A DNA stretch of 64,000 bases from Candidatus Methanospirareceae archaeon (GCA_049975405.1 JBNGDK010000005.1:156-64155), one strand, 5' to 3'; positions 910 to 21,296 are shown, numbered from the stretch's first letter. The notes: generated by a model not told the origin, from the letters alone. Made by a program: numbers and translations.

Positions 910-913
910 CTAT

Positions 914-1666: not shown

Positions 1667-1704
1667 TTCTCACTTATTCTTCTCCGTTCTCACATTCCAT
1701 CCAT

Positions 1705-4215: not shown

Positions 4216-4303
4216 GGTTGATTCACGAGCTCCGTGTTGTTGCTTCTCCTTTCGCTTCACCTGTTCACCATCTATTAAGCCTAAAAATAACAAAAATAGA
4301 GGG

Positions 4304-4327
4304 GGAAAAGTACCTCTATCCTTCATT
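4304..4327 (-). terminator. Hairpin followed by a T-rich run between pstS and the downstream operon genes. A possible partial terminator or attenuator that would raise pstS mRNA relative to pstCAB.
   Basis: Plus strand reads atagagggggaaaagtacctctat. On the minus strand this gives a 7-bp stem ATAGAGG/CCTCTAT, then ttttgttattttt. Confidence 0.3.
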
Positions 4328-4366: not shown

Positions 4367-5374
4367 TTACGCGCTCTTCATGCGGCGTGTGAGATACGCT
4401 ACGGCCAGCAGTCCCGTAACGGCGACTATGGCTTCGAAGCCGGGCTCTTCAGGCGTCGGAGTTGGTGCCGCTGTTGGGATCGATGTAGCAGTTGGCGCTG
4501 CCGTTGTGGATGGCGTTTTGGTCGGCGTGACCGCCCCACCCACCTCGATGTAGCCCATATCCTCGACGACCGCTTGCCCTTCGCTGCTGAGCACGAACTC
4601 GAGAAATGCCTGTTCGAGCGTGCTTGGGTCACCCTTCGTGATGAGATACAGACTCCGCTGGATCGGATAGTCGCCCGCTACAACGTTCTCGACCGTCGCT
4701 TCTACGCCCCCAACGCTGAGCGCCTTCATTGACGAATCAACGTAGCCGAGTGAGAGATACCCGATGCTCCGGTCATCGCTGCTGACCGTTGCGCGCACCT
4801 CGCCGTTTGAGGATTTTACTGATGCCTGTGCCGCAATATACAGATCAAAGGGCGTCATCACGTACGTTTCGAAGGTCTCGCGTGTCCCCGAACCTTCTTC
4901 ACGCGTGATCACCCGGATCTCTGCATCCGGGCCGCCAACATGCTTCCAGTTCGTGATCTCGCCGCTGAAGATCTGTGCCAGTTGCTCCAGTGTCAGGTCA
5001 CTGACCGTGTTGCCGGGATGTACGACGACGGCCACGCTATCCTTGCCGATGGCCACTGGATTCAAATCGGGATACTGTTCCAGCTCCGAAGACTTGACGT
5101 CCCGGGATACCGCGCCGATATCGATCTCGCCCGCACCGACGGACTTGACGCCGTGACCGGAGCCGCCGCCGGAAACAGAGATCCGCAGGTCGGGATTCGC
5201 GTCCATGAGCAGCCGTGCGCACTCCTGATTGATGGGGAGCACGGTGGTCGAGCCGGCGATCGTGAGTTCACCGGAGAGCCCCGTGGGGATCGCGGCGTCA
5301 ATCGCGGGCGTGAGCCCTGCAACCAGTGCCGTCAGGACGAGTGCCGCCAGAGCTATCGCCTTCGCTTTTTTCAT
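4367..5374 (-). CDS. pstS: Phosphate-binding protein PstS with an N-terminal signal peptide and a C-terminal PGF-CTERM archaeosortase sorting signal. Start set at MKKAKAIALAAL; the track ORF starts at 5407.
   Basis: PstS-family periplasmic binding fold with the SGGGSG motif. C-terminus reads TP-rich linker, EEPGFEAIVAVTGLLAVAYLTRRMKSA. Confidence 0.85.
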   Translation of the reverse strand: MKKAKAIALAALVLTALVAGLTPAIDAAIPTGLSGELTIAGSTTVLPINQECARLLMDANPDLRISVSGGGSGHGVKSVGAGEIDIGAVSRDVKSSELEQYPDLNPVAIGKDSVAVVVHPGNTVSDLTLEQLAQIFSGEITNWKHVGGPDAEIRVITREEGSGTRETFETYVMTPFDLYIAAQASVKSSNGEVRATVSSDDRSIGYLSLGYVDSSMKALSVGGVEATVENVVAGDYPIQRSLYLITKGDPSTLEQAFLEFVLSSEGQAVVEDMGYIEVGGAVTPTKTPSTTAAPTATSIPTAAPTPTPEEPGFEAIVAVTGLLAVAYLTRRMKSA

Positions 5375-5390
5375 CTTCGTATCACCAGGA

Positions 5391-5416
5391 TATATAAACA
5401 GCTGCATGTTTATATA
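5391..5416 (-). promoter_or_regulatory. Perfect 10-bp inverted repeat TATATAAACA-gctgca-TGTTTATATA immediately upstream of pstS. The distal arm is placed as a TATA box for a leaderless or short-leader pstS transcript. The palindrome is also a candidate operator.
   Basis: Read directly from the sequence. The arm at 5407-5416 lies 33-42 nt upstream of the ATG at 5374. Confidence 0.4.
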
Positions 5417-5449
5417 AATACCCCTTAAAGATCATATTAATAGGGGAGT

Positions 5450-5465
5450 ATATATACAGAAAAAA
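5450..5465 (-). terminator. Oligo-T terminator downstream of the pit gene
   Basis: Minus strand reads cccttttttctg, 15-25 nt after the pit stop at 5480. Confidence 0.4.
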
Positions 5466-5479
5466 GGGCACTTCACCTC

Positions 5480-6514
5480 CTAGAGAAGCGCGTTGAGCAG
5501 CCAGTAGGCCAGGCCGCCGATGAGCGCAGCCAGGGGGAGCGTAATTGCCCATGCCGTTACCATCCGGACCACTTCAGGCCACCGGATCCGGCTCAGGCTC
5601 TGGAAGAAAGATCCGCCGATCACCGACGAGCCCATGACGTGTGTCGTGCTCACCGGCATGCCCGCTAAACTCACGGCTATTAGGGCGAGTCCGGCACCCG
5701 CTTCTGCCGAAAACCCGTGCCGCGGCTCCAGCTTCGTTAAGCGCATGCCCATGGTTTGGATCACCTGCGAGCCCATCAGCAGTGTACCGAGCGCCATAAT
5801 GACGCCACAGGCGATTCGCACCCACCAGGGCACGGGAAACGGCTCCCCGGGTGGTGCGGCGAGGAACCCCGCGGCGATCAGAGCGGCACTGATCACGCCC
5901 ATCGCATTCTGCGTATCGTTCATGCCGTGGCTGAAGGACATGAAGGACGCGGAGATGGGCTGGAGCTTGCGAAAGAATCGCGCCACCTCAGGTGTCGGGG
6001 TGCCTTTAAAGGCGAGAAAGAGCACCCAGCTGATGAGTGCAAAGATCAGTGCACCGGCAACAAAACCCGCAAAGGGGCCGAGCGCGATCGCAAGGAAGAC
6101 CTTCTCCGTGAGGATCTCCCACCTGATCACGCGCGTGCCACCAGCGACAAGCCCGGCACCCATGATCGCGCCGACCAGCGCATGTGTCACGCTGATCGGG
6201 ATCCCGCTCGCGGTACAGACATAGGTCCAGATGATCGCGCCCAGTAAGCCGCTGATGAGTACGAGGAAGAAGACCTCCGTGGCCAGCTCGGTGATCGAGA
6301 CGATACCTTTTCCGATCGTCTGCGCCACCGCGGTGAACGCGAAGGCGCCAATAAGGTTGAAGACACTTGCGAGCGTTAACGCCTTGAGCGGGGTCAACGC
6401 TTTCGTCGCGATCACCGTGGCGATCGCATTCGCGCTGTCGTTCGCGCCATTCAGGAAGTTGTAGAGTAGCGCAAGGATTATGATGATAATGACGTAGAGA
6501 ACTGCAGAGGCCAT
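5480..6514 (-). CDS. pit: Inorganic phosphate transporter, PiT family
   Basis: 344 aa polytopic protein. PiT signature NGANDSANAIATVIATKAL near the N-terminus and a repeated GMNDTQNAMG motif. Confidence 0.9.
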   Translation of the reverse strand: MASAVLYVIIIIILALLYNFLNGANDSANAIATVIATKALTPLKALTLASVFNLIGAFAFTAVAQTIGKGIVSITELATEVFFLVLISGLLGAIIWTYVCTASGIPISVTHALVGAIMGAGLVAGGTRVIRWEILTEKVFLAIALGPFAGFVAGALIFALISWVLFLAFKGTPTPEVARFFRKLQPISASFMSFSHGMNDTQNAMGVISAALIAAGFLAAPPGEPFPVPWWVRIACGVIMALGTLLMGSQVIQTMGMRLTKLEPRHGFSAEAGAGLALIAVSLAGMPVSTTHVMGSSVIGGSFFQSLSRIRWPEVVRMVTAWAITLPLAALIGGLAYWLLNALL

Positions 6515-6518
6515 CAGA

Positions 6519-7211
6519 TCAGATGCCGCCTTTCAAGCGAAAGGTCTCCAGGATATTCGCCACGTCCTCGCAGTTATCCATGGTATCTTCCAGGATATCC
6601 ACGATCTCCTTGATCAGCAGCCGCTCGAGCACCTCGTTTGGACTCTCCGTCGGCGTGGTCATCAGCCGTTTCAGCCATTTACGATTTACCTTATCCGCTT
6701 CATTCTCCAATTCGTTGATTCGTATGCAGCTCTCCTCCAGCGTTACCTCACTGCGGCGGATGTCACGTAAACAGCAGACAGCCTTCTTTATCTCGTTCGC
6801 TGTCTCCAGAATGATCGGTGCGAACTCATTCACAGGTTCCGGCGTGAGTGGTCGCTGCGAAAATGCCAATCGCGCAACGGCCTTCTCCACGCCGTCGATC
6901 ACATTGTCAAGATTGTGAGCGAAATACCGGATGTCGCCCTTCTCCTCCGTGACTCGCGTGTGATCATAAAAGAGCCCCTGAATAATGTGGTGCACAATAG
7001 CATCACCTTCCTGCTCAATGACCTTGAGCTGCTCTCTGATCTCCATGAGGTTGGAGCTGCGCGAATCCTGGTTCAGCGAAGGGGTAGCAGCATCCTCGGG
7101 TTGATACTCAGCACTCAAATCCAGCATCAGTTGTGCGGCCTCTACCGTGGTATCCGCAAGCTCCTCGAAGAGGTCGAAGAATTTCTTCTCATGCGGGAGG
7201 AAGACAGACAT
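6519..7211 (-). CDS. Pit accessory protein, DUF47/PhoU-like, a TIGR00153-type partner of Pit. Start set at MSVFLPHEKKFFDLFEEL; the track start is 7331.
   Basis: KKFFDLFEE N-terminal motif typical of DUF47. Immediately upstream of pit, 4-nt gap. Confidence 0.75.
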   Translation of the reverse strand: MSVFLPHEKKFFDLFEELADTTVEAAQLMLDLSAEYQPEDAATPSLNQDSRSSNLMEIREQLKVIEQEGDAIVHHIIQGLFYDHTRVTEEKGDIRYFAHNLDNVIDGVEKAVARLAFSQRPLTPEPVNEFAPIILETANEIKKAVCCLRDIRRSEVTLEESCIRINELENEADKVNRKWLKRLMTTPTESPNEVLERLLIKEIVDILEDTMDNCEDVANILETFRLKGGI

Positions 7212-7397
7212 GCCATGCAAGACGGACCCGAACAGGAAGTATCTGGCAAAGGGGGTGGTGGCAGGGCTACGAGTTTCGGCTTGCCGGGCAATAAGAGCGG
7301 CAAACCGCTTCCGCGCTTCACCTCGTGTCATCCCTTGCAGGAAAAGAAGCGCGCGGGGTATTTAAGCCTTTCGAAATTTCTATATATAGTATATATA

Positions 7398-8000
7398 TTA
7401 TATAGTCTCGTCCGGGCTCCGCTGCTCTGAGATATGCGCCAGGAATTTCATGAATGCGCGGCTCCGGTGCGAGCGCTTGCTCTTCTCTTCGCGGCTCATC
7501 TCAGCAAAGGTCTTGCCCCTGATCTCGAAGAGCGGATCATAGCCGAAGCCGTTCGTGCCCCGCATCGTTTCTGCTATACGACCTTTAACGATACCGACAA
7601 AGAGCAGCGGCGTCGCGGTTCGTGATGCGCAGTAGGCGACCACGGTCTTAAAGGTTGCGGTGCGGGCTTCACCCGTGTGGTCAGCCATCAGTCGCAAGAT
7701 TCCTTCGTTTCCGATCGTCCGGAAGACGAATGCGGAAAACGGGCCGGGAAAGCCGTTCAAGGCGGGTATGTGGAGTCCGGAATCTTCGAGGAAGAAGGGC
7801 CGCTTGATCGTTAGTTGATTCTGGATGTACGCCGCACTCTCGCGCGCCACCTCCTCACTGGTATCGAGCTGTAGCTCGGGGTAGTCGTAATCGAGATGCT
7901 CGATCGTGATAGCTCGCGATTCCGCTGCCGCCAGCTCCTGTATCTCCTGTACCTTGTGCGCATTGGAGGTGATGAAGAGCACCTTCCGTCTCGAGCCCAT
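7398..8000 (-). CDS. Non-canonical purine NTP pyrophosphatase (Ham1/RdgB/ITPase family)
   Basis: 200 aa; N-terminal motif VLFITSNAHKVQE typical of Ham1. Confidence 0.9.
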   Translation of the reverse strand: MGSRRKVLFITSNAHKVQEIQELAAAESRAITIEHLDYDYPELQLDTSEEVARESAAYIQNQLTIKRPFFLEDSGLHIPALNGFPGPFSAFVFRTIGNEGILRLMADHTGEARTATFKTVVAYCASRTATPLLFVGIVKGRIAETMRGTNGFGYDPLFEIRGKTFAEMSREEKSKRSHRSRAFMKFLAHISEQRSPDETI

Positions 8001-8061
8001 GGGTTTCCACTGCTTAATATGCTCCCGCTATAAAGATATACCCGTAGCGTTCCCCACTACC

Positions 8062-9150
8062 ATGACGATCGAGAGCAGTATCAAACTGGAGCACGGCGCG
8101 GGAGGCGAGGGAATGCACGAGTTGCTCAAGCTCGTGCTCAGATACTTCACCTTCACGTTCATGGCAGAAAGCAGTAACAGTGATTTGAGGAGCACGATCG
8201 AGGTGCCGTTACAGGCGCTGGACGATTCCGCAGTCGTTGATAATATCGTCTTTACGACCGATTCACACACCGTGAAGCCGCTCTTCTTCCCGGGTGGTGA
8301 TATCGGATCGCTTGCAGTCGCGGGTACAGTGAACGACATCGCGGTCATGGGTGCGCAACCGCTCGGGCTTTCGGTCGCCTTCGTGATCGAGGAGGGGTTC
8401 CCGATGCACGACTTCGAGCGGGTGTTAGCGAGCATGAAGCGCACCTGCGAGGAGGCCGGGGTCGCGGTCGTCACCGGCGATACGAAAGTAGTGGAGCGTG
8501 GCGCGGTGGAGAAGCTGGTGGTGAACACCTCCGCGATCGGCCGGCGAACAGCCGCGTTGGAGCGTAATCTCGCGGAGGTGCGAACGTACCGTGCGCTCAA
8601 CGGCAACTGGTTACTGGATTCGAATCTGCGCGCGGGCGACAGGATAATCGTTTCAGGGTATGTCGGCGATCACGGTGTCGCGCTGCTCTCGTTCCGTGAA
8701 GGGTTCGAGTTTGATACCGCGCTGGAATCTGATATCGCGCCTCTGAACAAGCCGATCCAGGCGATCCTGGCGGTTGGCGGGATCGTAGCGATGAAGGATC
8801 CCACCCGTGGCGGGCTCGCGAATCTGCTGAACGAGTTCAGCACGAAATCGAACGTCGGCATTCTGATCGAGGAGGCGGCGATTCCGGTGCGGGAATCGGT
8901 GCGGAGCGCCTGCGAGCTGCTGGGGATCGATCCGCTGGAGGTCGGAAACGAGGGGAAGTTGGTACTCGGCGTCGTCGAGGAGAAAGCGGAAGCGGTACTT
9001 GCGGCACTGCGAGCAACAAAGCAAGGTCGGGACGCCGCGATCATCGGCACGGCAACAGATGACTTGAAGGGCGTGGTAATGAAGACCCGGGTGGGTGGTA
9101 TGCGGATCGTGGAAACGCCCATTGGCGATCCCGTGCCCCGGATCTGTTGA
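8062..9150 (+). CDS. hypE: Hydrogenase maturation carbamoyl dehydratase HypE. Start set at MTIESSIKLEHGAGG; the track ORF starts at 7906.
   Basis: AIR-synthase-related fold with the EHGAGG N-terminal motif and the C-terminal PRIC motif ending in Cys. Confidence 0.9.
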   Translation: MTIESSIKLEHGAGGEGMHELLKLVLRYFTFTFMAESSNSDLRSTIEVPLQALDDSAVVDNIVFTTDSHTVKPLFFPGGDIGSLAVAGTVNDIAVMGAQPLGLSVAFVIEEGFPMHDFERVLASMKRTCEEAGVAVVTGDTKVVERGAVEKLVVNTSAIGRRTAALERNLAEVRTYRALNGNWLLDSNLRAGDRIIVSGYVGDHGVALLSFREGFEFDTALESDIAPLNKPIQAILAVGGIVAMKDPTRGGLANLLNEFSTKSNVGILIEEAAIPVRESVRSACELLGIDPLEVGNEGKLVLGVVEEKAEAVLAALRATKQGRDAAIIGTATDDLKGVVMKTRVGGMRIVETPIGDPVPRIC

Positions 9151-9194
9151 GGTTACGGTGCTCTCCACACGCTGCTCTGGCTCTTCTGGTGTGC

Positions 9195-9225
9195 GATCCT
9201 CGTGCTTTGAAATCTTTTTAAAAAG
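9195..9225. terminator. Bidirectional T-run and short inverted repeat between convergent hypE and the mrp-like gene
   Basis: Sequence gaaatctttttaaaaagggtt has T5 on both strands. Confidence 0.3.
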
Positions 9226-9228
9226 GGT

Positions 9229-9978
9229 TCAGCGCTGATTCAATTTGAACCGCGGATCCTGTATGACGATCTCCGTGAGTCGCGCAGCCATGGCGCTCTT
9301 ACCTAACGCGTCCGCATTACCGATCTTATCCTCAAGATCCATATCGAACTCGATCGCACCCAGGAGCGGCACGTTGTATGCGCTCAACTCATCCCGCACG
9401 AGTGCGGACTCCCGCATCTTCATATTCTCAATGACGCCGATAATCGGCTTCTGAAGCTCCTGGAGCATCTGAATGACCTTCTTTACCGTGACCAGAGCGA
9501 CCTTCGAGCCAGTGGTCATGATCAGGAACTCGGCACGCTTCAGCCACCGGATGACGTCCATCGCCGCATCACCGATACCGGGTGGCATATCAACAATGAG
9601 GAAATCCAGGGCGCCCCACCGTGTAATGGCGAGCAATTCCAGCATCGCGTTCGTGATATCTTCACCGCGCAGTGGTGCAGCAGCATCGTCAGTGAAATAG
9701 CAGATGCTCATGAACGAGATGCCGTGTACCACAGGCGGGATAATACCGTACTCCTCCTCGGGGAAGACATCGTCAATGCCCAGGATCACGTGTGCGGAAG
9801 GCGCGGACATGTCCAGATCGAGCAGCCCGACCTTATAGCCCCGTTGCGCAAGGATCAGGGCGAGCACCGATGAGGTCAGGCTCTTTCCAATACCACCTTT
9901 ACCGCCGGTTACCGCGATGATTCGCTCTATACCCGCCAACCGTTTGTCAACCACGCTCACGCGCGGATCCATCGTCAT
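9229..9978 (-). CDS. Mrp/MinD-family P-loop ATPase, a candidate archaeal-type HypB given its position immediately downstream of hypA
   Basis: Deviant Walker A GGKGGIGKS. 249 aa. Sits 10 nt after hypA, and Mrp/MinD-type HypB is known from Thermococcus. Confidence 0.7.
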   Translation of the reverse strand: MTMDPRVSVVDKRLAGIERIIAVTGGKGGIGKSLTSSVLALILAQRGYKVGLLDLDMSAPSAHVILGIDDVFPEEEYGIIPPVVHGISFMSICYFTDDAAAPLRGEDITNAMLELLAITRWGALDFLIVDMPPGIGDAAMDVIRWLKRAEFLIMTTGSKVALVTVKKVIQMLQELQKPIIGVIENMKMRESALVRDELSAYNVPLLGAIEFDMDLEDKIGNADALGKSAMAARLTEIVIQDPRFKLNQR

Positions 9979-9987
9979 GCCCCTCCA

Positions 9988-10395
9988 TTATTTCAGCCCT
10001 TTTATCCGCTGGATCGTCACGCCACGACCCTGCACGACCTCAAAATCCGGGCTCTTACAGCTCGGGCAGCGCATATACGCGTGCGCCACTTCAGGCGCAA
10101 AATGAATCGCTTCGCCCTCCGCTTCGTTCAGACTCGCTTTCTGATAGCGCCATTCGGTACCGCAGACCCGGCATGTGAAGATCGCCGGCTCGTCCTCCAG
10201 CTTCACCTGCGCGTTCTGCAGCAGCTTCCCATGCATTTTGGTGATCTCGTCCAGCGCAAAGGTGAACGGGTCGAGCTCTATCTGTTGCAGCTCACCGATC
10301 CGCACGGTGATCTCCGTGATCTCGGTCATCCCTTCTTTACGCGCATCCGCAACGGCTGCCTCGATGACTGCCTCTGCCAGTGCCCATTCGTGCAT
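9988..10395 (-). CDS. hypA: Hydrogenase nickel incorporation protein HypA
   Basis: N-terminal MHEWALAEAVIEA and CxxC...CxxC zinc-ribbon motifs. 135 aa. Confidence 0.85.
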   Translation of the reverse strand: MHEWALAEAVIEAAVADARKEGMTEITEITVRIGELQQIELDPFTFALDEITKMHGKLLQNAQVKLEDEPAIFTCRVCGTEWRYQKASLNEAEGEAIHFAPEVAHAYMRCPSCKSPDFEVVQGRGVTIQRIKGLK

Positions 10396-10698
10396 CGTTC
10401 AGACTCGCTCCCTTCTCTTTCTGGTTATTAGTGAGGCACGAAGGGATAAGTAGCTAGCTTGATTCATGGCTCGATCGCTCGTGTGTTAATCCTCCTATAG
10501 CAGTATCGCGGTTTCAGTCACGATAGCTCTGCCGTGGATTGGAGACTTGACAATGCGATGCAGGAGAGAAATCGACATACGAGCGAGGACGCAGCGGGGA
10601 AAAAAGTATGTGGTTTAAAGCCCCCAGCGTATCCGCTATAAGGACAAAATCACGATTTGTCTTCTCATCTCAAAGTGAGCACCAGAACATGTTTAACC

Positions 10699-10827
10699 TT
10701 ATTTCTCTCTACGTCTCGGTCCACACGTGCAGGCGGCAGGTTCTTTACCGCAGATGCTACACTTATCCTCCGAGTTCAAAGGTGCCCCGCACGTAAAACA
10801 GTAGTATTGTTCAGGCATTTTTTCCAT
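10699..10827 (-). CDS. Unannotated small zinc-ribbon protein of 42 aa, MEKMPEQYYCFTCGAPLNSEDKCSICGKEPAACTCGPRRREK, in the 0.8 kb gap between hypA and the surface-protein gene
   Basis: Manual translation. Cys-pair motifs CxxC, CxxC and CxC. Below the ORF-track length cutoff. Confidence 0.3.
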   Translation of the reverse strand: MEKMPEQYYCFTCGAPLNSEDKCSICGKEPAACTCGPRRREK

Positions 10828-11202
10828 CGGGGAGCAATTAGTGCACTCGCTATTTAAAGGTTTCGCTTTTGAGTGGGTGTCAACTTATTGGGGGTTGGTG
10901 ATCTAAAGCATTCATCAAAAGCAATATTTTCACTCCGGCGGCTTAATTTTCGAGTTGATTTTGGGTAGCACCCACTAACTCTACAGCCCCATTACGCCGC
11001 AAACTTTTTAAGGCGCTTCACCATGTATTGTTACAATGAACACCTCTTCTGAAGGCGACCGCTTTTCAAGATGACAAATTCCTGGCTACTTCTGACCCCG
11101 AGGTTGTTTTTTTACTCCATCTCGGGCATTCTGAGACCTCATTGGCTACCCTGCTTCTAACAGCTTGACGATCCGTTCTGTCATAGCGCTCTAAGGAGGA
11201 AC

Positions 11203-14200
11203 GTGAAAAAGAGGGTGAAGCTGAAAATGAACAAACAAGTTGTAAGTCTCTTATTCATCGTTTTTTTTCTGGTGTTTGGGTTTGCACCATACTCTGGCGG
11301 CGAGAGTACGGTAAACTCACCGAACGGAGCAGTTGTGGACGCAGGGCCTTTATCGGAGGGACTTGCCGCACCGTATCCCATTCACAATCTGAACACCTCC
11401 GAACAGTTCTCCTCGATTCAGGCGGCCATTGACGCGCCTAATACGACTGAAGGTCATATCATCGAAGTCGATTCCGGCACCTACACCGAGAACGTGGTGG
11501 TGAACAAATCAATAACGATCAGATCATCTACGGGTGATCCATCTGGCACGGTTATTCAGGCGGCCAATACGAGCATTGATGTCGTTACGGTTACTGCTGA
11601 TCGGGTGACCATCAGCGGATTCACCATACTGAATGCAACAGCAGCAGGGAAAGCGGGTATCTTCCTCGCTTCGAGCGATAACCTTATCGAGAACAACATC
11701 GTGACCGGTAATTATAACGGTATTTTCGCACTGAATACGATTCCTGGTGGTCTACCGGCGATGTGTGTACAGAGCCTGTGGAGTGCACCGGCATTTGAGC
11801 GTTATTCTGGAAGAGATGCACGCGCGGCGGATAACGATGATGATGCCCGCACCAAGCTTTCAGAACCACCAAAACCGTCTGCTTTACGGACGTCACGAAA
11901 GGCGAGCTCGAGCGGGCCACTCGCGCTAGCTCTGGTTTATAGCGCGGGGGATTCACCACCAGCCTCGATTCAGCGTAATACGATACGTGCCAACAACGTG
12001 AGCCTCAATGAGTATATCGGCATCGTGTTATCTGGATCATCGGAAAACATTGTAGAGGATAATTGGTTGGACGCAAACGGTGACACAGGCATATATCTCG
12101 AATATGGAGACCACAATCTTGTGCGCAAAAACATCGTGACCTCGAATTACTGGGGCATTTATCTGTACCGTGGCGATAATAATACGTTATCCGGAAATAC
12201 GCTCGATTTAAATAGTATCGAGGGAATCTCCCTCGGTGACGCTACAAATACCCAGATTACTAACAACACAGTGAAGTATCAGCATTGGGATGGCGGTATC
12301 AGTCTCTGGGGCACCAGCAGTAATGCCACTATAACGGATAACATCGTCAGCTCTAATGAAGGTTCAGGGATTATCCTATGGGACGCTAATGATAACAATA
12401 CTATAGCTCGTAATGACGCACGGTACAACTACTACTCGGGAATTGACATTATGGGTACCAGCAGCAAGAATACGATCGAAGATAATATTGCCACGGCAAA
12501 TGAAGGATCTGGTATTTCATTGTGGGACTGGGCAAGTAACAATTACCTGAATAATAATATCCTTTCCAACCACAGCTACAATGGGATTGATTTGGGTGAT
12601 TTTACGAACAATAATAACATTGCAAACAACATGGCAAGCTACAACATTTTCAGTGGTATAGGACTGTTCGATTCTAGTAGTAATAATACGGTATTACAGA
12701 ACGAATTGTCAGGTAACCGATTTGGATTAAGCATTTACGGAACTGGCGGATATGGGTGCAATAACATAATAACGAATAACACCATTGTTAACAATCAGTT
12801 TCAGGGTATCTGGTTATTCAATGTATGGGACACTATTATAGCTCATAATATCGTCTCAAATAACACGTATTTTGGGATAGGCGCTTCCCGTTCTTCCAAT
12901 CTATCAATAAGCTCGAACGTCGTTACCGGCAATGAGCAGGGTATAGGGTTACTATATTTCTCTGATAATATAACTGTAACAGGCAACATTGCCACTGAAA
13001 ACAGGCTCTCGGGTATTTATGTATGGGCATCTGAAAACAGCACCTTTTCGAATAATTCGCTGAGTTCTAACATTTTTGAGGGTTTTTATCTTTTGGAAGC
13101 AAGTTATAACACGATATCCAATAATTTCGTAACAGGGAGCTATTGGGGGGCAGCGTTAATTGATGCATCGAACAACATTATAGCAAACAACGATGCGGAA
13201 TCGTGCTATTATAGTGAGGTATGGCTCTATTTATCGCCTGATAACACTATTATTAACGACACCTATTACATTCAGGACGATATATTCTACGGGGTCAGTG
13301 TGTCTATTTCAGAATCGTCAACGCCGGCATTGCAAGCGGTCACGACCGAAACAAATGCAACGTATAGTATCAAGGTAAAGAATCTTGGCAATGACTTGGA
13401 TGAATTTGAGCTATTCAATTCGAGCAGTGATGACCCTGCGATTCTCTTCCTGGACCCTCCCAGTATGCTGCTCGGGCCGCGCGACGTTTCGAGCATTACG
13501 CTTACCGTTGGCGATTCCGAGCCGGGCATATACCGCGTTACGGTAGAAGCGCGCTCAAAGTATGACCCGACCGTGACGGACAGCCTGGAAACACGGACGA
13601 TCGTGCGCGGCATCGTCGGTCCAGAGCCCGATGTAACCAACAGTATCACTGATTCCGCGATCATCAATTGCTCAGAGGACGGGTCAATGTCATCTATTAG
13701 CGGTTCTGTCATTGATAGATCCGCAATTATTGACTCCACCATTACTGATTCTACGATCACCAACTCGGTTATCACGAACAGCGTGGTGGTTGGCACAGTC
13801 CTCCCTCCTGAGATTACCCTCACCAACGCGATGGTGCATGCGGGCATCATTTCAGAAGGCTCTATCACGATACAGGGCGTCACGTACACCATCGATTCTG
13901 ACCGGCGGCTTGATGAGCTCATTATCGGCTCGGATTTCAGTGACAGTAATCTCGTGGGGCTTGCGGGTGCGCGCACGCTGTACGTGACCGCTACCGAGTC
14001 GGACGTGGACTTCGATATCAGTGCTAAGGATGATTATTCCGCCGGCTCGCTGCGTGTGCAACGCGCGATCCTGCCGCCAGCGGGCGTTCGTGAGCTCACG
14101 AACAGTATCGGCGGCTATGTATGGGCGAACGTGAGCGCGAACGTGGCGAACAGCACCGGATGGGTGGTGATTACGGTATTCTATGATCCGGGTGAGCTGG

Positions 14201-14736
14201 GAGATCTCGACGAGCGCTCCCTGACGCTTCGGTATTACAATGAACGTTCCGGAGACTGGGAGGAGGTACCTGTCGGTGGCGTTAATCTCACCGGGCATTA
14301 CGTCTGGGCGAACATCTCACATTACAGTGTCTTCTCGGTTTCTGGTACGGTCACCCCGAAACGAGATATACGCCCAGGTGGTAGCGCTGCGTCGCTCGAT
14401 GCTGATGGTGATGGGCTTTCAACGCTCCAGGAGCTGATCATGGGAACAGATCAGTACAACAACGATACGGACGGAGATGGTTATGACGACGGTATAGACC
14501 CCTTCCCCCTGGATCCGGCGCGGCCGTTACAGCCCACGCCGACGGTGATGCCGGAACCAACGCCAAGTCCAACAGCATTACCCACACCGCCATTATCTCC
14601 GCCACCTGCTTCACCGATGCCAACAGCTGCTCAAGAGGGCTGGGATTTCGAGTTACCGATCCCCGGATATGAAGCAATCGTTGCCCTCTGCTGCTTCATA
14701 ATCGTGGTATGTATTGCACAACGGCGCAGGCGCTGA
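11203..14736 (+). CDS. Large secreted cell-surface protein, 1177 aa. It has a signal peptide, NosD-like parallel beta-helix (PbH1) repeats, a C-terminal module shared with the 2133-aa protein, a Pro/Thr linker and a PGF-CTERM-like anchor (PGYEAIVAL...RRRR). GTG start at 11203, alternative ATG at 11227.
   Basis: Beta-helix repeats NNIVTGNYNGIFAL and ITNNT..G. TSP3-like DTDGDGYDDGIDPFPLDP. Module YVWANISHYSVFSV. Consistent with an archaeosortase substrate. Confidence 0.8.
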   Translation: MKKRVKLKMNKQVVSLLFIVFFLVFGFAPYSGGESTVNSPNGAVVDAGPLSEGLAAPYPIHNLNTSEQFSSIQAAIDAPNTTEGHIIEVDSGTYTENVVVNKSITIRSSTGDPSGTVIQAANTSIDVVTVTADRVTISGFTILNATAAGKAGIFLASSDNLIENNIVTGNYNGIFALNTIPGGLPAMCVQSLWSAPAFERYSGRDARAADNDDDARTKLSEPPKPSALRTSRKASSSGPLALALVYSAGDSPPASIQRNTIRANNVSLNEYIGIVLSGSSENIVEDNWLDANGDTGIYLEYGDHNLVRKNIVTSNYWGIYLYRGDNNTLSGNTLDLNSIEGISLGDATNTQITNNTVKYQHWDGGISLWGTSSNATITDNIVSSNEGSGIILWDANDNNTIARNDARYNYYSGIDIMGTSSKNTIEDNIATANEGSGISLWDWASNNYLNNNILSNHSYNGIDLGDFTNNNNIANNMASYNIFSGIGLFDSSSNNTVLQNELSGNRFGLSIYGTGGYGCNNIITNNTIVNNQFQGIWLFNVWDTIIAHNIVSNNTYFGIGASRSSNLSISSNVVTGNEQGIGLLYFSDNITVTGNIATENRLSGIYVWASENSTFSNNSLSSNIFEGFYLLEASYNTISNNFVTGSYWGAALIDASNNIIANNDAESCYYSEVWLYLSPDNTIINDTYYIQDDIFYGVSVSISESSTPALQAVTTETNATYSIKVKNLGNDLDEFELFNSSSDDPAILFLDPPSMLLGPRDVSSITLTVGDSEPGIYRVTVEARSKYDPTVTDSLETRTIVRGIVGPEPDVTNSITDSAIINCSEDGSMSSISGSVIDRSAIIDSTITDSTITNSVITNSVVVGTVLPPEITLTNAMVHAGIISEGSITIQGVTYTIDSDRRLDELIIGSDFSDSNLVGLAGARTLYVTATESDVDFDISAKDDYSAGSLRVQRAILPPAGVRELTNSIGGYVWANVSANVANSTGWVVITVFYDPGELGDLDERSLTLRYYNERSGDWEEVPVGGVNLTGHYVWANISHYSVFSVSGTVTPKRDIRPGGSAASLDADGDGLSTLQELIMGTDQYNNDTDGDGYDDGIDPFPLDPARPLQPTPTVMPEPTPSPTALPTPPLSPPPASPMPTAAQEGWDFELPIPGYEAIVALCCFIIVVCIAQRRRR

Positions 14737-14751
14737 GTGAACCACTTTTAG

Positions 14752-16224
14752 CTAGCGACTGGTAAGCGGGGCAGTTCTCGCCAGCTCTTCATGGATTCTG
14801 CTCTGGTAGCGGTTGAAATCAGCAAGGCTGCCATCTGCAAGCGCCCATGTCGCCTCGGAAACCCGGGTGTTTTCCGGATCATACCACTGATCCACGAGCG
14901 TGATCACATAGGCGTAGCGCTTTGTCTGCCACTCATGCGCATCGAGCGTCCCGCCGGGATATTCCAACCCATAACGTTCACAGGTTGTTCGCATCAGATA
15001 TGGATATCCTGCAACGGTGTTGAATTCCTCGAAGTCGTAGAAGAAGAGCAGCTCGTTGACGGGATTCACGGTGAATGCTAGAGCGTTCTGGGGCTTATCC
15101 ACATTGACAATGAACTCGCCCACGATCTGATCGCCGTAGACACCCAGGCGGTCATCGAATCTGAAGCTACCCTCGGGCAATGAGAAGATCACACCGCCTC
15201 CAATTTTGTCACCGAGCAGGATGTGGGTCGGGAACATCAGCGAGAACGCGGCAGAACCAACGTGCCACGGCTTCCGCTCGCTCCGCCCGATGGTGGTGAG
15301 ATTGTAGAGCAGCGGTGGGCCCCACAAATCGTAATTTGAGTTATCCCCGCCGCGCATACAGGTAGTGCGATACTCATCAATCAAGACCCAGGATTGCACG
15401 ATCTCATCCGGATCCCTGACAGCGTTCGGATAGACGTATCCCTCCTTCTGGAGGTTGATGAGTTCAACGGCATTGATGAAGTATGGTCTGTCGGCGAAGA
15501 TGCCGAATATGACCTCTGCTTCCACATCATAGCCCTCTCCCCTCTCCACCTGACACGTATCCCAGCTACGAGTATCGATCATCAGAAAGCCCCGGGCTGC
15601 GTCCTCGTAAACGAACTCGTATTCCAGTCCGTCGGTGTCGTAGAGCGCCGTGCTTGCATAAGCGAGTGAATTGTCACCGTCATGATCAGCAAAGCCGAAA
15701 TCACAGGCCGTGAGGACATCGATCTTGCTCGAAACGGCATCATTGTAGACCAGGATATCCCGGTCTCTCATCCTATCAAAGATCGTATAGTAGCTGTGAT
15801 CCAGGTTGATATTCAACCGGTAATAGGGGTTCTCAACGACCAGCCAGCCCTTATCCGGTGCATGCTTGCTCGTGCAGGGCTCCCAGATACGGACGTACCC
15901 GCCGTCCCCGTAGGTCAGCAGATGGCGGATCTGCGTTGGCGTTATCTGCTCACTTTCAATCAGCGATCCCTCCTGGTCGGGAGCCTCATGATATTGATAG
16001 TACCACTCGTGTACCCCAACGTGCACCGCCGCATCAAATAGGGCAATGGCGACGAAGAAGAGGATAGCGAGGAAAAGTGTCAAAACGGGCTTGTTCTTGT
16101 ACAGTCTGGTAAAGCGGTCATGAACAACACCGTGGAGGTCCGAGAACGTTGCAAACTTATCGTCAATACGCTCGCAGACCGCTCTCAGCCTTCTCGGGCG
16201 GGGCTTACTTTCTTCACTGGCCAT
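14752..16224 (-). CDS. Hypothetical N-terminally membrane-anchored protein, 490 aa, of unknown family. One TM helix followed by a large extracytoplasmic domain.
   Basis: TM segment VLTLFLAILFFVAIALF. No recognisable catalytic motifs. Convergent with the surface-protein gene. Confidence 0.55.
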   Translation of the reverse strand: MASEESKPRPRRLRAVCERIDDKFATFSDLHGVVHDRFTRLYKNKPVLTLFLAILFFVAIALFDAAVHVGVHEWYYQYHEAPDQEGSLIESEQITPTQIRHLLTYGDGGYVRIWEPCTSKHAPDKGWLVVENPYYRLNINLDHSYYTIFDRMRDRDILVYNDAVSSKIDVLTACDFGFADHDGDNSLAYASTALYDTDGLEYEFVYEDAARGFLMIDTRSWDTCQVERGEGYDVEAEVIFGIFADRPYFINAVELINLQKEGYVYPNAVRDPDEIVQSWVLIDEYRTTCMRGGDNSNYDLWGPPLLYNLTTIGRSERKPWHVGSAAFSLMFPTHILLGDKIGGGVIFSLPEGSFRFDDRLGVYGDQIVGEFIVNVDKPQNALAFTVNPVNELLFFYDFEEFNTVAGYPYLMRTTCERYGLEYPGGTLDAHEWQTKRYAYVITLVDQWYDPENTRVSEATWALADGSLADFNRYQSRIHEELARTAPLTSR

Positions 16225-16358
16225 TACACACCTCTCCCTTCCTATATTATAGGTGGTACTGCTCCCTTTTTAGATTACCCCACGCTTTGTTGAATCTTCA
16301 GCGTGAACTACTTTGCGGTCGTGGAATTCATATGCTTGCCGTTTGTTGTTGCTGCTGT

Positions 16359-17054
16359 TCATTCTCCACGGTTAGCTACTTCCTGCCGCTTCTGCATCAC
16401 GAAGAAGACAGAAGCGTTTTGTTCAGGATTGCTTTTGAACAGCGATACTTCGCGATACTCTCTGTCAAGCACTGCAAGCGCCTTTGTGTCGTCGCGGTAT
16501 TTTGCACGCAGTTCCGCTATCCGCTTCTCCAGCGGCTCATAATATGCACACCACCATTCATCGGCGGAAATGGTAAACTGCCCGAGCAACTCATAGCCGC
16601 TTTTGGTGATGTGGTTCTGTTTCGTCTTCAGGTCACCGAGTTCATCATGAACCACCAGGAAACCGGCGGGCTTGAGCAGTCGTCGCCATGCTTGCAGACC
16701 CTGTTCAAAGCCAATAACCGCGATTGAGCCCTCGGCCCAGAGGATATCGAAGCTCTCGTCCGGGAACTCCAGCTCGAATAGCGAGCCGTTCACAGCCGTC
16801 ACCCGATCTGCGAGGTTTGCCGCAGCGATCTTCTGCTGTAGATCGTCCAGTGCAGGCTGATTGATGTCCAGTCCTGTTACTGTTCCGTTACTCACCCGCG
16901 CGAGCTCCAGCGTCGGAACGCCCGTGCCGCAGCCGATATCCAGAATAGCGGGATGATTAAGCGCGGGCTGCATCCGAAATGCGCGCCGCGTGTAGCACAG
17001 AAGGTTAGCTCTTACCCGGTCTTTGCACAGCTCATCCTGCACTTCAGTGGTCAT
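16359..17054 (-). CDS. Class I SAM-dependent methyltransferase
   Basis: Motif I ILDIGCGTG and an acidic-loop motif. 231 aa. Confidence 0.85.
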   Translation of the reverse strand: MTTEVQDELCKDRVRANLLCYTRRAFRMQPALNHPAILDIGCGTGVPTLELARVSNGTVTGLDINQPALDDLQQKIAAANLADRVTAVNGSLFELEFPDESFDILWAEGSIAVIGFEQGLQAWRRLLKPAGFLVVHDELGDLKTKQNHITKSGYELLGQFTISADEWWCAYYEPLEKRIAELRAKYRDDTKALAVLDREYREVSLFKSNPEQNASVFFVMQKRQEVANRGE

Positions 17055-17103
17055 GCGAATTCAGTAATTACTCGACTATTGCTCGGTCACGTCACTGCAT
17101 GCG

Positions 17104-17490
17104 TCACTTAACTCTTTGCGCGCCCTTCGCGATCGCTTCCTCGACTGCGGCGAGATCCTTCATCACGAATACTCGCTCCTTCGCGCGATCCTCCGAATGA
17201 ACGGAATTCTTCAGTATCGGTGCGTATTTCTTGAACCGATCGATCTTCACCGTATAGGGGGCGGTATCCTCGATCGGAACGGGCTCGAAACCCCGCTCCT
17301 CCAGATAGGCGATCACCTTATCCCGCTCACTCACGTTCTCGAACTCGAACCGGTAGGTCTCGCGATGGTAATACTCAGCCAGCTCTTTGAAGATCTCAGG
17401 CTCGCCGAAGAAGTGCTTGAAGCACCACAATCTGCCAATCTTGAAGATATTGATCTTCTCCTTCTTTACCTTCGGTTGCTGAGCGCTCAT
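17104..17490 (-). CDS. Hypothetical protein of unknown function. Start set at MSAQQPKVKKEK, with a perfect AAGGAGG Shine-Dalgarno 6 nt upstream.
   Basis: ORF-track ORF 17104-17553 trimmed to the Met with a strong RBS. No family recognised. Confidence 0.5.
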   Translation of the reverse strand: MSAQQPKVKKEKINIFKIGRLWCFKHFFGEPEIFKELAEYYHRETYRFEFENVSERDKVIAYLEERGFEPVPIEDTAPYTVKIDRFKKYAPILKNSVHSEDRAKERVFVMKDLAAVEEAIAKGAQRVK

Positions 17491-17679
17491 GCTTGCCTCC
17501 TTTAGTTTACTATTCGTCAAGCCAGGATAAAACCTTTCGCGATGCATACACATCTTCTGCTGCCAGGTTGACCGCGGATTTTCGCACGTGACACCTGAAC
17601 ACCATGCACTTCACGGGTTCGGCACGAGCTATCGCGCCCGTCACCAGATTAAGCCGGGCCAAGGGGGTCAAACCACCAA

Positions 17680-17697
17680 AAAGCTTATATATATCCT
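17680..17697 (+). promoter_or_regulatory. Archaeal BRE/TATA promoter for the histone gene: caaaaag then ttatatatat, about 30 nt upstream of the ATG
   Basis: The TATA box TTATATATAT centre lies about 34 nt before the ATG at 17724, implying a very short leader. Confidence 0.45.
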
Positions 17698-17723
17698 CCT
17701 CGTACCCAGTATCAGTGATAAAA

Positions 17724-17924
17724 ATGGCTGTATTACCAAAAGCACCTGTAACCAGGTTGGTTAAGAGCGCAGGAGCCGAGCGAGTGAGTGAAGAGGCCGC
17801 TGAAGAGATGACACAGCTGCTCGAGGACTATGGCGCGAAGATCGCGAAGAAGGCTGTGGCACTCGCGAAGCACGCTGGTCGGAAGACCGTGAAGGCCGAG
17901 GACATCGCGCAGGCTGTAGATTAA
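17724..17924 (+). CDS. Archaeal histone (HMfA/HMfB family), 66 aa. Start trimmed from the track ORF at 17604.
   Basis: Sequence [66 protein letters not shown] matches the histone-fold consensus of archaeal histones. Confidence 0.9.
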
Positions 17925-17959
17925 AAAGGCATACCGAAGAGGAGGGGAGAACGAATCAA

Positions 17960-17992
17960 TTCAGATCATCCCCTTTTTATTTTTTTACTCAT
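17960..17992 (+). terminator. Short hairpin (agggga...tcccct) followed by ttttatttttttac; an oligo-T terminator after the histone gene
   Basis: T-run immediately 3' of the histone stop. Confidence 0.45.
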
Positions 17993-18138
17993 TCATGCAG
18001 TGATGGTGCTTCAGGTCGCACAGCGCGCATTCTCATCGTCCGATCGCGCCTGACGTAGTGCTTTCTCGTCTTCAGTGCGTTGAAGAACGATCTGGCAGTG
18101 CGCTATAACCCTTATATCCTCTCAATCTTGATGGACTC

Positions 18139-19428
18139 TTGATGCAGCAATCTGAGTTTGAAGAGGGCGACCGCATACGGGTACGAAAGAGTACCGATTC
18201 CGGCATCACCGTCTACGAAGGCATTTTCATGCCCACGGCATCGCAGAATATCGTCATTAAGCTCGACAGCGGCTATAACATCGGTATTCGGCCTCAGGAT
18301 GTTGAGCTCGAGCTGGTCAGTAGAGCAGGTGTAGTTCAGGAGCATACGGCGGTCGAAGCACCAGAAACGCAAAGAACAGAACGCTTGCCTTTCCTCGCGA
18401 TACTCTCGACGGGCGGCACGATCGCCTCGAAGGTCGATTATCGAACCGGTGCGGTCTCACCGCAATTCACCACTGCGGATATCCTCGAGGCCATTCCAGA
18501 GCTGGGCCAGATCGCCACCATTACTGGCCAGGTCGTGTACAGCATACTGAGCGAGAACATGCGTGCCACGTACTGGCAGCGACTCGCTGCTGAGGTCCAT
18601 GCGGAGATACAGAATGGGGCGGACGGTATTATCGTGACTCACGGGACCGATACCATGGGCTATACCGCTGCGGCACTGGCATTCATGGTGCAGACGCCCG
18701 TGCCAGTTGTGCTCGTCGGCTCTCAGCGCAGTTCAGACCGCCCGTCCAGTGATGCCTCGATGAACGCGATCTGCGCCGCGAAAGTGGCCACGAGCGACAT
18801 CGCTGAGGTTGTGGTCGTGATGCATGGCAGCACCTCCGACGATTTCTGTCTCATACACCGCGGCACGAAGGTGCGGAAGATGCACACCTCGGCCCGGCCC
18901 GCATTCCAATCGATCAATGATGAGCCTATTGGCCGAGTATGGTACAGCGCCGGCGATGTGGCGAGAGTGCGGATCGAGGCCACAGCGCCCTATGTACAGC
19001 GTGGCGAGCGCGAATTGGTGCTCAGAGCTGCGCTTGAAGAGCGGTGTGCGCTCATCAAGTTCTTTCCGGGTGAAGATCCCGCAGTGCTCGAGTATTTCGT
19101 CGAGCAGGGCTATAAGGGGCTTGTCGTGGAGGGCACAGGGTTAGGACACGTCTCCGCGGAATGGATCCCGAGCATACGGCGCACGGTGGAGCGCGGCATT
19201 CCTGTCGTGATGACCTCCCAATGTTTATATGGCGCCATCTGTGATAGGGTCTATGATACCGGCCGTGATCTACTCCATGCGGGCGTCATAGAGGCTGAGG
19301 ACATGCTGCCCGAGACGGCGTTGGTGAAGTTGATGTGGGTGCTCGGCCAGACGCAGGATATGGCGTCTGTAGGGCAGATGATGCAGGAGAATATCGCCGG
19401 TGAGATAAAAGGGAGACGAATGCCATGA
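18139..19428 (+). CDS. gatD: Glutamyl-tRNA(Gln) amidotransferase subunit D (archaeal GatD, asparaginase-like)
   Basis: 429 aa. N-terminal GatD domain plus an asparaginase domain with the [10 protein letters not shown] threonine motif. Confidence 0.9.
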
Positions 19429-20453
19429 ATATTCTCGCAATGGATATAGGCGCGGGCACGCAGGACATACTGATCTTTGATTCTGATCTTATTAGGAATC
19501 TTGAGAGCGCATACAAGCTCGTGCTCCCGTCACCCACCCGTATCGTGGCTAATGAACTCCGGAGGACACGGGAAGACGTGGTCATCTTCGGTGATACAAT
19601 GGGTGGTGGTGCCTTCACACGCGCCGTGCTCGACCATCTCAGAGACTACAAGGTGTATATGACCGAGGATGCAGCACGGACACTAAGAGACGATCTGGAG
19701 AGCGTCCGTGGCTATGGGATTGAGCTCATATCGAGCGAGCAGGAGCTCGAGGAATTGAGTGAGACGGCCGAGCCGATAAAAATATCGGATTTTAATCTCC
19801 AGCTCATCCCGACACTTGCGTCTTTTGGCATTGATACCAATTTCGATGTCATCGCGATCGCAGTGCAGGACCACGGGGTCGCACCTGCGGGTCTTACTGA
19901 TCGTGAGCACCGGTTTCAGTTGATCGAGGAGAACGTGGGCGGTGGGTTGGAGTCCTTCGCATACCTCGATGGCGTACCGGAGAATCTGAGCAGAATGCGA
20001 TCGCTCTATCGGTCGCTGAGACGCTGGTATGATGGGCACATCCTCCTGATGGACACCGGACCTGCGGCGGTGCTCGGCGCACTTGAGGACGAACGGGTGA
20101 AAGATAAAAGTCGGGTTGTCTGTGTCAACGTCGGCAACGCGCATACTATCGCGATCTCGCTCACTGATGGCCAGATAGTCGGGGTCTTTGAGCACCATAC
20201 GCACCTGCTTGATAAGCCGAAACTCGCGCGGTACCTTTCCAGACTGTGCGACGGCACGATTACGTTCCAGGAGGTCTTCGATGATGGCGGGCACGGTGCA
20301 GTCGTGCGCGGCGCGAATCAGCCGGAGATAATATCCATAACGGGACCGAACCGGGGGCGGATGGCAGGCCTGGGCGTCTTTGCCGCACCTGCGGGCGACA
20401 TGATGATGACCGGGGCGGTGGGCTTAATCAAGGCCGTTCTGAATCGCGTGTAA
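19425..20453 (+). CDS. DUF1786-like protein of the ASKHA (actin-like ATPase) fold, conserved in methanogens. Translationally coupled to gatD through an ATGA overlap.
   Basis: N-terminal [14 protein letters not shown] phosphate-1 motif, a second glycine-rich motif and VNVGNAHT. Family name recalled from memory. Confidence 0.5.
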
Positions 20454-20468
20454 TCAGCAGCGCAGCAC

Positions 20469-21296
20469 ATGATTCTCGTATCCAGCATCCCGTTCATTTC
20501 CATCGGGCTCTTCGCCCTAGCGTTGCTCTTCAAGAAGCGAGTGGTCGGTGCGCTGGGCTGGCTCGTCTTCTCACTGTACTGCGTATCTGAGGTCTCCTAT
20601 TATCTCATTGAAAAGGCGGAGTACTTTGACGCTGCGATTGCCGTTATTTTTCTCGCATTTACCCTGCTCTTCGCAGCACTCATGCTCAAACCGGCATCGC
20701 CGAGCGACCGTGATGAAGAAGCGCTGCACTTCACGGTTACCAAAATCGCGCTGATCACAGCCACCCTTTACTTTCCCTTTGCCGCATTTCCCGCGCTTGA
20801 AACGCTCATTATTGCCCTCACCACCCGAATCACCGCCACGGTACTTGCGATGCTCGGCGTGAGCGTGTACATGGTCTACCCATCCAGCATCTATACCACT
20901 GCCAGCTCGTTCCACGCCGTTTACAAGCCGATCGAGATCATTCTGGCCTGCACGGCGATCCAGAGCATAGTGCTCTTTGCCGGCCTGACCCTCGGGGTGG
21001 AGGCACCGCTGAACCGAAAGCTCAAAGCTTTTATCGTCTCCGTTCCCACCATCTACGTGCTGAATATCGTACGGAACGTCTTTGTCACCGCAGCGTACTT
21101 CGGTGAGTGGTTTGGGCCGCCGCTTCAGAGTTTCGATATCGGCCATGGGATCATTGCACGGATCTTCGTCATGGTCTCGCTCATCGTTGTAGCTTACGCC
21201 GTCTTCGTGTTACTCCCTGAGGCGCTCGACCTCATCGAGTACTTCTTCCGCTATCTGTCCAGACGGCTTACCGCTTCAATACGCATCAGCGGATAA
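20469..21296 (+). CDS. Polytopic membrane protein, candidate archaeosortase of the ArtA/exosortase family
   Basis: 275 aa with 7-8 TM helices. Cys161 in IEIILACTAIQSIVLFAG and Arg202 in YVLNIVRNVF lie 41 residues apart, the same Cys-Arg spacing as the catalytic pair of Haloferax ArtA. Three PGF-CTERM substrates occur in the same window. Confidence 0.5.
   Translation: MILVSSIPFISIGLFALALLFKKRVVGALGWLVFSLYCVSEVSYYLIEKAEYFDAAIAVIFLAFTLLFAALMLKPASPSDRDEEALHFTVTKIALITATLYFPFAAFPALETLIIALTTRITATVLAMLGVSVYMVYPSSIYTTASSFHAVYKPIEIILACTAIQSIVLFAGLTLGVEAPLNRKLKAFIVSVPTIYVLNIVRNVFVTAAYFGEWFGPPLQSFDIGHGIIARIFVMVSLIVVAYAVFVLLPEALDLIEYFFRYLSRRLTASIRISG

Follow-up and report, generated by a model that had tools for sequence, protein, structure and literature searches.

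The closest known archaeosortase system is that of Haloferax volcanii, in which archaeosortase A (ArtA, HVO_0915) acts on substrates such as the S-layer glycoprotein HVO_2072 and HVO_0405. These proteins end in a PGF-CTERM signal, in which a PGF motif, a hydrophobic helix and basic residues follow a stretch rich in threonine and proline. In this species, ArtA-dependent cleavage and lipidation also require PssA and PssD (PMC7157517, PMC6098224), and the ArtA residues Cys173, Arg214 and Arg253 are critical for activity (PMC9263693). The DNA considered here is a stretch of 64,000 nucleotides (the window), nearly the whole of a 64.6-kb contig, from a metagenome-assembled genome (MAG) of Candidatus Methanospirareceae archaeon, an uncultured methanotroph of the anaerobic methanotrophic archaea 1 (ANME-1, Methanophagales) lineage. 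The window very probably holds an ordinary housekeeping artA gene together with the genes for three presumed ArtA substrates, namely the phosphate-binding protein PstS, a NosD-like surface protein and a giant surface protein.

Several other systems are close enough to be instructive. In Methanospirillum hungatei, the S-layer protein Mhun_2263 similarly combines a proline-rich spacer of ~50 residues with a PGF-CTERM, so that it is held outside the cell at a fixed distance from the membrane (PMC11641113); the cargo there forms a structural lattice, whereas in ANME-1 it comprises the binding protein of a transporter and large proteins resembling adhesins. A 2012 review (PMC3387779, citing Haft et al. 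2012) gives a putative phosphate-binding protein of Haloferax volcanii as a predicted archaeosortase substrate with a C-terminal lipid anchor. This is the same pairing of a PstS-type protein with a PGF-CTERM, although in another lineage, and in ANME-1-type genomes the tail is a clade-wide rule that alternates with a lipobox or an N-terminal helix in sister lineages. The oligopeptide-binding proteins of the crenarchaeal genera Sulfolobus and Aeropyrum likewise consist of a signal cleaved by signal peptidase I, a core, a linker rich in hydroxy amino acids and a C-terminal hydrophobic anchor. However, they have no PGF motif and their hosts lack an archaeosortase, so that the helix itself is the anchor (PMC3387779). 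Unlike Haloferax, the window has no S-layer glycoprotein gene and no pssA or pssD near artA.

The features central to the comparison are listed below, with the support for each in brackets.

4367..5407, minus strand: pstS, phosphate ATP-binding cassette (ABC)-transporter substrate-binding protein (TIGR02136, structure match)
4370..4444, minus strand: PGF-CTERM sorting signal of PstS, made up of PGF, a 16-residue hydrophobic helix and RRMKSA (PF18204, TIGR04126)
11203..14736, plus strand: secreted parallel beta-helix (NosD-like) surface protein, 1177 residues (PF13229, PF05048, TIGR03804)
14662..14733, plus strand: divergent PGF-CTERM-like tail of the NosD-like protein, PGYEAIVALCCFIIVVCIAQRRRR (tail profile, orthologues)
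20469..21296, plus strand: artA, archaeosortase A, 275 residues (TIGR04125, TIGR04178, identical NCBI record)
51361..57762, plus strand: giant surface protein, 2133 residues (Pfam, hydrophobicity scan, translation)
57673..57759, plus strand: PGF-type long-helix tail of the giant protein, PGFETVLWLMGLGCAVILAMAARKTRRRV (tail profile, homologues)

A sequence-only reading of the window had proposed three PGF-CTERM proteins and a candidate archaeosortase between 4367 and 21296. The feature that it described is real and already known, and its reading was correct in the main; all four C-terminal or internal sequences that it quoted are found in the window exactly as quoted. Two details need correction. 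The giant protein lies 30 kb outside that range, and the model accessions had been mixed up, TIGR04125 being the archaeosortase A model and TIGR04126 the PGF-CTERM model.

Archaeosortase A

The polytopic protein encoded at 20469-21296 scores 195.4 bits against the hidden Markov model (HMM) for archaeosortase A (TIGR04125, cut-off 75) and 63.8 bits against the exosortase/archaeosortase signature TIGR04178 (cut-off 23, residues 155-250), which confirms its proposed identity as an archaeosortase. Models for the other subtypes (ArtB, ArtH, XrtX, XrtR, XrtH and heimdallarchaeosortase) give at most 25 bits, far under their cut-offs. The enzyme annotation is not new, as NCBI already lists the identical sequence (MGC9443675.1) as "archaeosortase A [Candidatus Methanospirareceae archaeon]". 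As such, the protein would be a polytopic membrane cysteine transpeptidase/protease.

The two residues singled out in the sequence-only reading, Cys161 (within IEIILACTAIQSI) and Arg202 (within YVLNIVRNVFVTA), are at the positions given, and their distance of 41 residues equals the Cys173-Arg214 spacing of Haloferax ArtA, which belongs to the same family by TIGR04125 and conserves both residues. Cys161 and Arg202 are the counterparts of the Haloferax catalytic pair. An alignment of 121 sequences (the window protein and 120 homologues) shows no variation at Cys161, Arg202 or His226, and 93% conservation of Arg231. The ANME-1 enzyme is the shorter of the two, with 275 residues compared to 303 in Haloferax volcanii, where artA measures 912 bp (PMC7157517). 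Its AlphaFold model (predicted local distance difference test score 86.6) is all-helical and polytopic, with nine long helices of 16-32 residues along the whole chain, one short helix and a beta hairpin; no solved structure was found to be similar by sequence or by fold. A PGF-CTERM protein that passes both TIGR04126 and PF18204, namely PstS, is encoded on the same contig.

PstS and its PGF-CTERM

PstS is 100% identical to NCBI MGC9443661.1, the deposited form of which begins at Met12 and comprises 335 residues; this methionine (nucleotide 5374) is likely the true start. The protein scores 235.8 bits against TIGR02136 (cut-off 206.6), and the best solved-structure match over its core is the phosphate-binding protein 4gd5 (E 1.2e-47). 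Its layout comprises an N-terminal Sec-type signal peptide, the binding core (approximately residues 34-273 counted from Met12, or ~45-288 in the 346-residue open reading frame, ORF), a Pro/Thr linker and the PGF-CTERM tail, with ...TPTPEEPGFEAIVAVTGLLAVAYLTRRMKSA at the C-terminus. A lipobox ([LVI][ASTVI][GAS]C at the signal peptide end) is absent, and the sole cysteine, at residue 63, lies inside the binding core.

Against TIGR04126 (cut-off 24.5), PstS scores 26.1 bits as a whole protein and 32 as a tail alone; the corresponding values for PF18204 (cut-off 18.8) are 36.5 and 41.4 bits. Only 22 residues follow the PGF motif, which is thus at the extreme C-terminus of a protein with a signal peptide. 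The tail qualifies by both models as a bona fide PGF-CTERM, as had been proposed. PstS therefore passes the PGF-CTERM models and the 20469-21296 protein the archaeosortase models, the two points on which the sequence-only reading had made its interpretation depend.

That reading also considered a PGF-CTERM noteworthy on a substrate-binding protein, a view that proves overstated. Among the 120 best PstS matches in a collection of 5.8 billion proteins, 87 have a [PS]G[FY] tail (80 PGF, 5 SGF and 2 PGY), and tailed PstS proteins occur in approximately 30 species-representative ANME-1-type MAGs. The combination of PstS and PGF is the rule in the ANME-1 lineage, and it was predicted earlier, in 2012, for Haloferax, as described above. 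PF18204 is already present in the precomputed annotation of most of the tailed homologues. In 74 of the 87, a glutamate directly follows the motif. The basic residues of the tails begin 15-20 positions further on, and the linker sequence is variable, while the motif is conserved.

The closest tail-less PstS homologues, with 66-74% core identity, end with the binding domain and have their anchor at the N-terminus. In Ca. Argoarchaeum and the Archaeoglobaceae this is a lipobox (FAGC and LAGC, respectively), and in others (Bathyarchaeia, Ca. Methylarchaceae and further groups) it is an N-terminal membrane helix that is apparently uncleaved. The tail thus acts like one of several exchangeable anchoring modules, which supports an anchoring function for the tail of PstS. 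In this lineage, a predicted C-terminal lipid anchor replaces the N-terminal lipobox or membrane helix of the closest tail-less homologues. This exchange is the one modestly interesting result of the comparison, and it adds something to the known picture.

The NosD-like and giant proteins

The NosD-like protein is assigned to the parallel beta-helix proteins by PF13229 (188 bits), PF05048 (171 bits) and 11 TIGR03804 repeats. It begins with a signal peptide, contains 27 N-X-S/T sequons and finishes with a Pro-rich linker and a divergent PGY tail. Its C-terminus is ...PIPGYEAIVALCCFIIVVCIAQRRRR, in which PGY replaces PGF in an otherwise tripartite architecture. The closest orthologue (P0279, 76% identical) also has PGY and fails PF18204. 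Four further orthologues (P0280-P0283, 59-66% identity) end in PGFEFPxPGF[EDG]AL...RRRR and pass PF18204 with 24-37 bits. PGY also occurs sporadically in the tails of PstS orthologues (P0110, P0113 and L021), in which PGF is the rule. Given both the passing orthologues and the occurrence of PGY in PstS tails, the NosD-like tail is probably a diverged PGF-CTERM, and it would be filed as a diverged relative outside the model-defined members.

Behind its signal peptide, the giant protein carries three ricin-type lectin domains and numerous TSP3 calcium-binding repeats; a Pro/Thr linker leads to the PGF tail, and the sequence ends in EEPGFETVLWLMGLGCAVILAMAARKTRRRV. The tail, which begins PGFEAILWL, consists of PGF, a 20-residue helix and RKTRRRV. 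A pattern of PGF[EG]A[IL]LWL..A..F.V followed by basic residues recurs in ~12 homologues, with a helix 3-4 residues over the canonical length. Tails of this type score 7-9 bits on PF18204 (17.4 for one variant), all under the cut-off of 18.8, and PF18204 is in the precomputed annotation of none of these homologues. The PGFEAILWL-type tail is common to a family of giant TSP3/lectin surface proteins and is unrecognised by current models.

The NosD-like (13903-14733, plus strand) and giant (56911-57759, plus strand) proteins share a C-terminal module of ~260 residues (BLASTP E 1e-23). It consists of a beta-rich domain ending in ...VWAN[VI]SH[FY]S..SV, a DxDGDG repeat, the Pro/Thr linker and the PG[FY] tail. 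Only a single homologue of these large proteins is named a "PGF-pre-PGF domain" protein in NCBI, a domain which we take to be TIGR04213; an NCBIfam scan of the C-terminal 330 residues of the two window proteins reported no "PGF-pre-PGF" match. More distant homologues of both proteins (P0263, P0266, P0268, P0284, P0285, P0287 and P0289) end in plain anchors without PGF.

Some observations on the large proteins stand apart from their tails. The body of the NosD-like gene (12001-14000) has a GC content of 0.45, markedly under that of its surroundings, which could reflect either the Asn/Ser/Ile-rich beta-helix repeats or a foreign origin. Convergent with this gene is a 490-residue ORF (14752-16224, minus strand) with one N-terminal hydrophobic segment, for which neither Pfam nor NCBIfam gave a family at the thresholds applied. 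The giant protein has four internal hydrophobic helices (~residues 846-995) between two large extracellular TSP3/ricin lectin regions. In combination with the signal peptide and the C-terminal PGF tail, this topology is unusual for a presumed adhesin.

Comparison of the three tails

The Pro/Thr-rich linkers described in the sequence-only reading are borne out: proline and threonine make up a fraction of 0.42-0.55 of the 40 residues before the motif, compared to 0.11-0.12 in the rest of each protein. Judging from their sequence, these linkers may be O-glycosylated. The C-termini of all 470 stop-to-stop ORFs in the window were scanned for [P][GAS][FYWL] with a hydrophobic stretch and then basic residues behind it. 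Only the three proteins discussed here matched, so the tail pattern is no chance product of many ORFs. A lineage-specific profile, built from 76 PstS-orthologue tails, ranks the C-termini of the window as follows.

PstS: 52.8 bits, E 4.8e-16
NosD-like protein: 21.2 bits, E 3.7e-6
Giant protein: 7.4 bits, E 0.075
Next-best ORF of the window: 6.8 bits, E 0.12

Of the three proteins named as PGF-CTERM proteins in the sequence-only reading, then, PstS stands, as it passes both models, and the other two fail both TIGR04126 and PF18204, falling outside the curated definition. Their tails appear PGF-CTERM-like through orthology and architecture only. Because the domain is short, some genuine PGF-CTERM domains are documented to escape TIGR04126, and lineage-specific profiles recover more of them (PMC9723798). 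Together with the evidence from orthologues, this makes both large proteins probable but unproven ArtA substrates, less certain than PstS.

Proposed processing route

By analogy with Haloferax, each substrate would be exported through the Sec pathway by means of its N-terminal signal peptide, which in PstS is predicted to end with MKKAKAIALAALVLTALVAGLTPAIDA, directly before an alanine. The tripartite architecture suggests that the hydrophobic C-terminal helix and the basic end would then retain the protein in the membrane in such a way that PGF is at the outer face. ArtA, using Cys161 and Arg202, would cut at or near PGF, after which an archaeal lipid would be attached to the new C-terminus; archaetidylethanolamine, as produced by PssA and PssD, is one possibility. 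PstS would in this way be tethered by its ~35-residue Pro/Thr linker beside PstCAB, the permease whose genes lie downstream. In the NosD-like and giant proteins the same signal would be present in diverged versions, and these proteins are probably processed too, with less certainty.

Evidence against this route and alternative explanations

Several observations weigh against the processing route and against the enzyme and substrate assignments on which it depends. Arg231 is only a candidate counterpart of Arg253, the third critical residue of the Haloferax enzyme. A Pfam hmmscan of ArtA returned no family even at E<=10, unlike the precomputed tables, which give PF09721 (Exosortase_EpsH) for all 120 ArtA homologues. 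pssA and pssD were looked for beside artA, where they are found in Methanosarcina, and are absent from the window. For the proteins of this organism and of its taxonomic order, cleavage and lipidation by ArtA are predictions by homology with Haloferax. The remaining points concern the tails: two of the three fail both curated models, neither the NosD-like nor the giant tail matching TIGR04126 or PF18204 at E<=10, and the giant tail is at background level on the lineage profile (7.4 bits versus 6.8 for the next-best ORF). In Haloferax, a permuted PGF blocks processing (PMC6098224), which bears on the PGY of the NosD-like tail.

These last points would also fit a different explanation, in which the tails of the two large proteins would be simple transmembrane anchors at the C-terminus, left unprocessed by ArtA, and the true substrates would be limited to PstS and other proteins whose tails are canonical. 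The length of the giant-type helix, the low PF18204 scores of its relatives and the plain anchors without PGF in distant homologues of both proteins point the same way. However, PGF is kept at the same position in ~12 giant-type tails despite variable flanks, although the motif would be superfluous for a pure anchor; the NosD-like tail has orthologues that pass PF18204, and its PGY recurs in PstS orthologues. Plain anchoring of the two large proteins is thus considered unlikely, while it deserves to be kept in view. A similar explanation might be extended to PstS, the tail of which would then be a transmembrane anchor only and its PGF match incidental, on the model of the Sulfolobus and Aeropyrum binding proteins, in which a glycosylated Ser/Thr stretch precedes the C-terminal helix that anchors them (PMC3387779). 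For PstS this is very improbable, given that its tail passes two independent curated models, that PGF-Glu and the helix length are conserved over 87 homologues, that ArtA is encoded 15 kb away on the same contig, and that Crenarchaea have neither archaeosortase nor motif (PMC3387779).

The occurrence of artA and three PGF-type tails inside 64 kb might further be taken to indicate a dedicated gene cluster, a functional island for surface proteins, particularly as published InterPro counts for ANME-1 give only 4-9 PGF-CTERM proteins per bin (PMC5244752). This is hardly credible. The artA and substrate genes are scattered among unrelated housekeeping genes (hypA, a ParA/NUBPL-type P-loop ATPase gene, a histone gene, gatD, TGT, the CCA-adding enzyme gene, mutS and others), and form no dedicated cluster; pstS is within its own operon, and in relatives artA travels with gatD and a DUF1786 gene without these substrate genes nearby. 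In addition, curated models undercount PGF tails, which makes the background rate uncertain. An ordinary artA with scattered presumed substrates, of which PstS is the most secure, remains the preferred reading.

Genomic context

The rest of the pst operon lies downstream of pstS (253..4326, minus strand, by Pfam matches), with the following genes.

3466-4326, minus strand: calcineurin-like metallophosphoesterase (Pfam)
2553-3473, minus strand: pstC (Pfam)
1705-2673, minus strand: pstA (Pfam)
914-1666, minus strand: pstB (Pfam)
253-909, minus strand: phoU (Pfam)

The order is thus pstS, metallophosphoesterase, pstC, pstA, pstB and phoU, with pstS first, and genes for a PiT-type phosphate transporter and a DUF47 protein are found upstream of the operon. 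The sequence pstS-phosphoesterase-pstC is seen in 26 of the 45 PstS loci compared, including the tail-less Ca. Argoarchaeum loci. The metallophosphoesterase may free phosphate from esters for uptake.

On the plus strand, gatD, the DUF1786 gene and artA form a tight string (18139-21296), with a 4-bp overlap and then a gap of 15 nucleotides. The string is kept in relatives with 59-70% ArtA identity (L003, L004, L054 and L056) and is absent from two loci at 55% identity (L001 and L055). The possibility that DUF1786 is a partner of ArtA was set aside, the string holding only at an ArtA identity of at least 59%. Locus L001, from another ANME-1 genome (GCA_026133975.1), has a gene for a PssA-type CDP-alcohol phosphatidyltransferase (9790-10485, minus strand) ~3 kb from artA, an arrangement that recalls the artA-pssA-pssD synteny of Methanosarcina (PMC7157517).

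Elsewhere in the window, a tRNA-Arg(TCT) gene (37477-37551) is followed by a low-GC stretch that extends to 48000 (GC 0.35-0.48 versus ~0.55 elsewhere). Its genes encode SEC-C-motif, PRiA4_ORF3-like, transglutaminase-like and SdpI-like proteins, and it may be a foreign island. A check of this region as a possible integrated element revealed neither an integrase nor a direct repeat derived from the tRNA.

Implications

The finding carries little weight beyond annotation. It confirms that ANME-1 archaea encode ArtA, in agreement with current NCBI records, which annotate the enzyme in many Methanophagales MAGs. The text of a 2017 comparative study describes ANME-1 as lacking an archaeosortase A domain, and its own table gives 2 hits in a first column taken to be one of the ANME-1 data sets (PMC5244752). 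The phosphate-binding protein of ANME-1 appears to be tethered by a C-terminal PGF signal and not by an N-terminal lipobox. The alternation of lipobox, N-terminal helix and PGF-CTERM among close PstS orthologues provides a clean natural example of interchangeable archaeal anchoring modules.

Diverged tails in this lineage, both those with PGY and the long-helix PGFEAILWL type, escape the curated models, and the number of ArtA substrates counted in ANME genomes is therefore probably too low. A broader proposal, tentative and on balance rather doubtful, is that an archaeosortase route in ANME-1 replaced lipobox or N-terminal-helix anchoring of PstS, and that ArtA there accepts both PGY and long-helix PGFEAILWL tails. 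If this is true, the ArtA repertoire of these uncultured methanotrophs would be substantially under-counted by TIGR04126 and PF18204, and proteins for nutrient uptake and adhesion, not an S-layer protein, would make up most of it.

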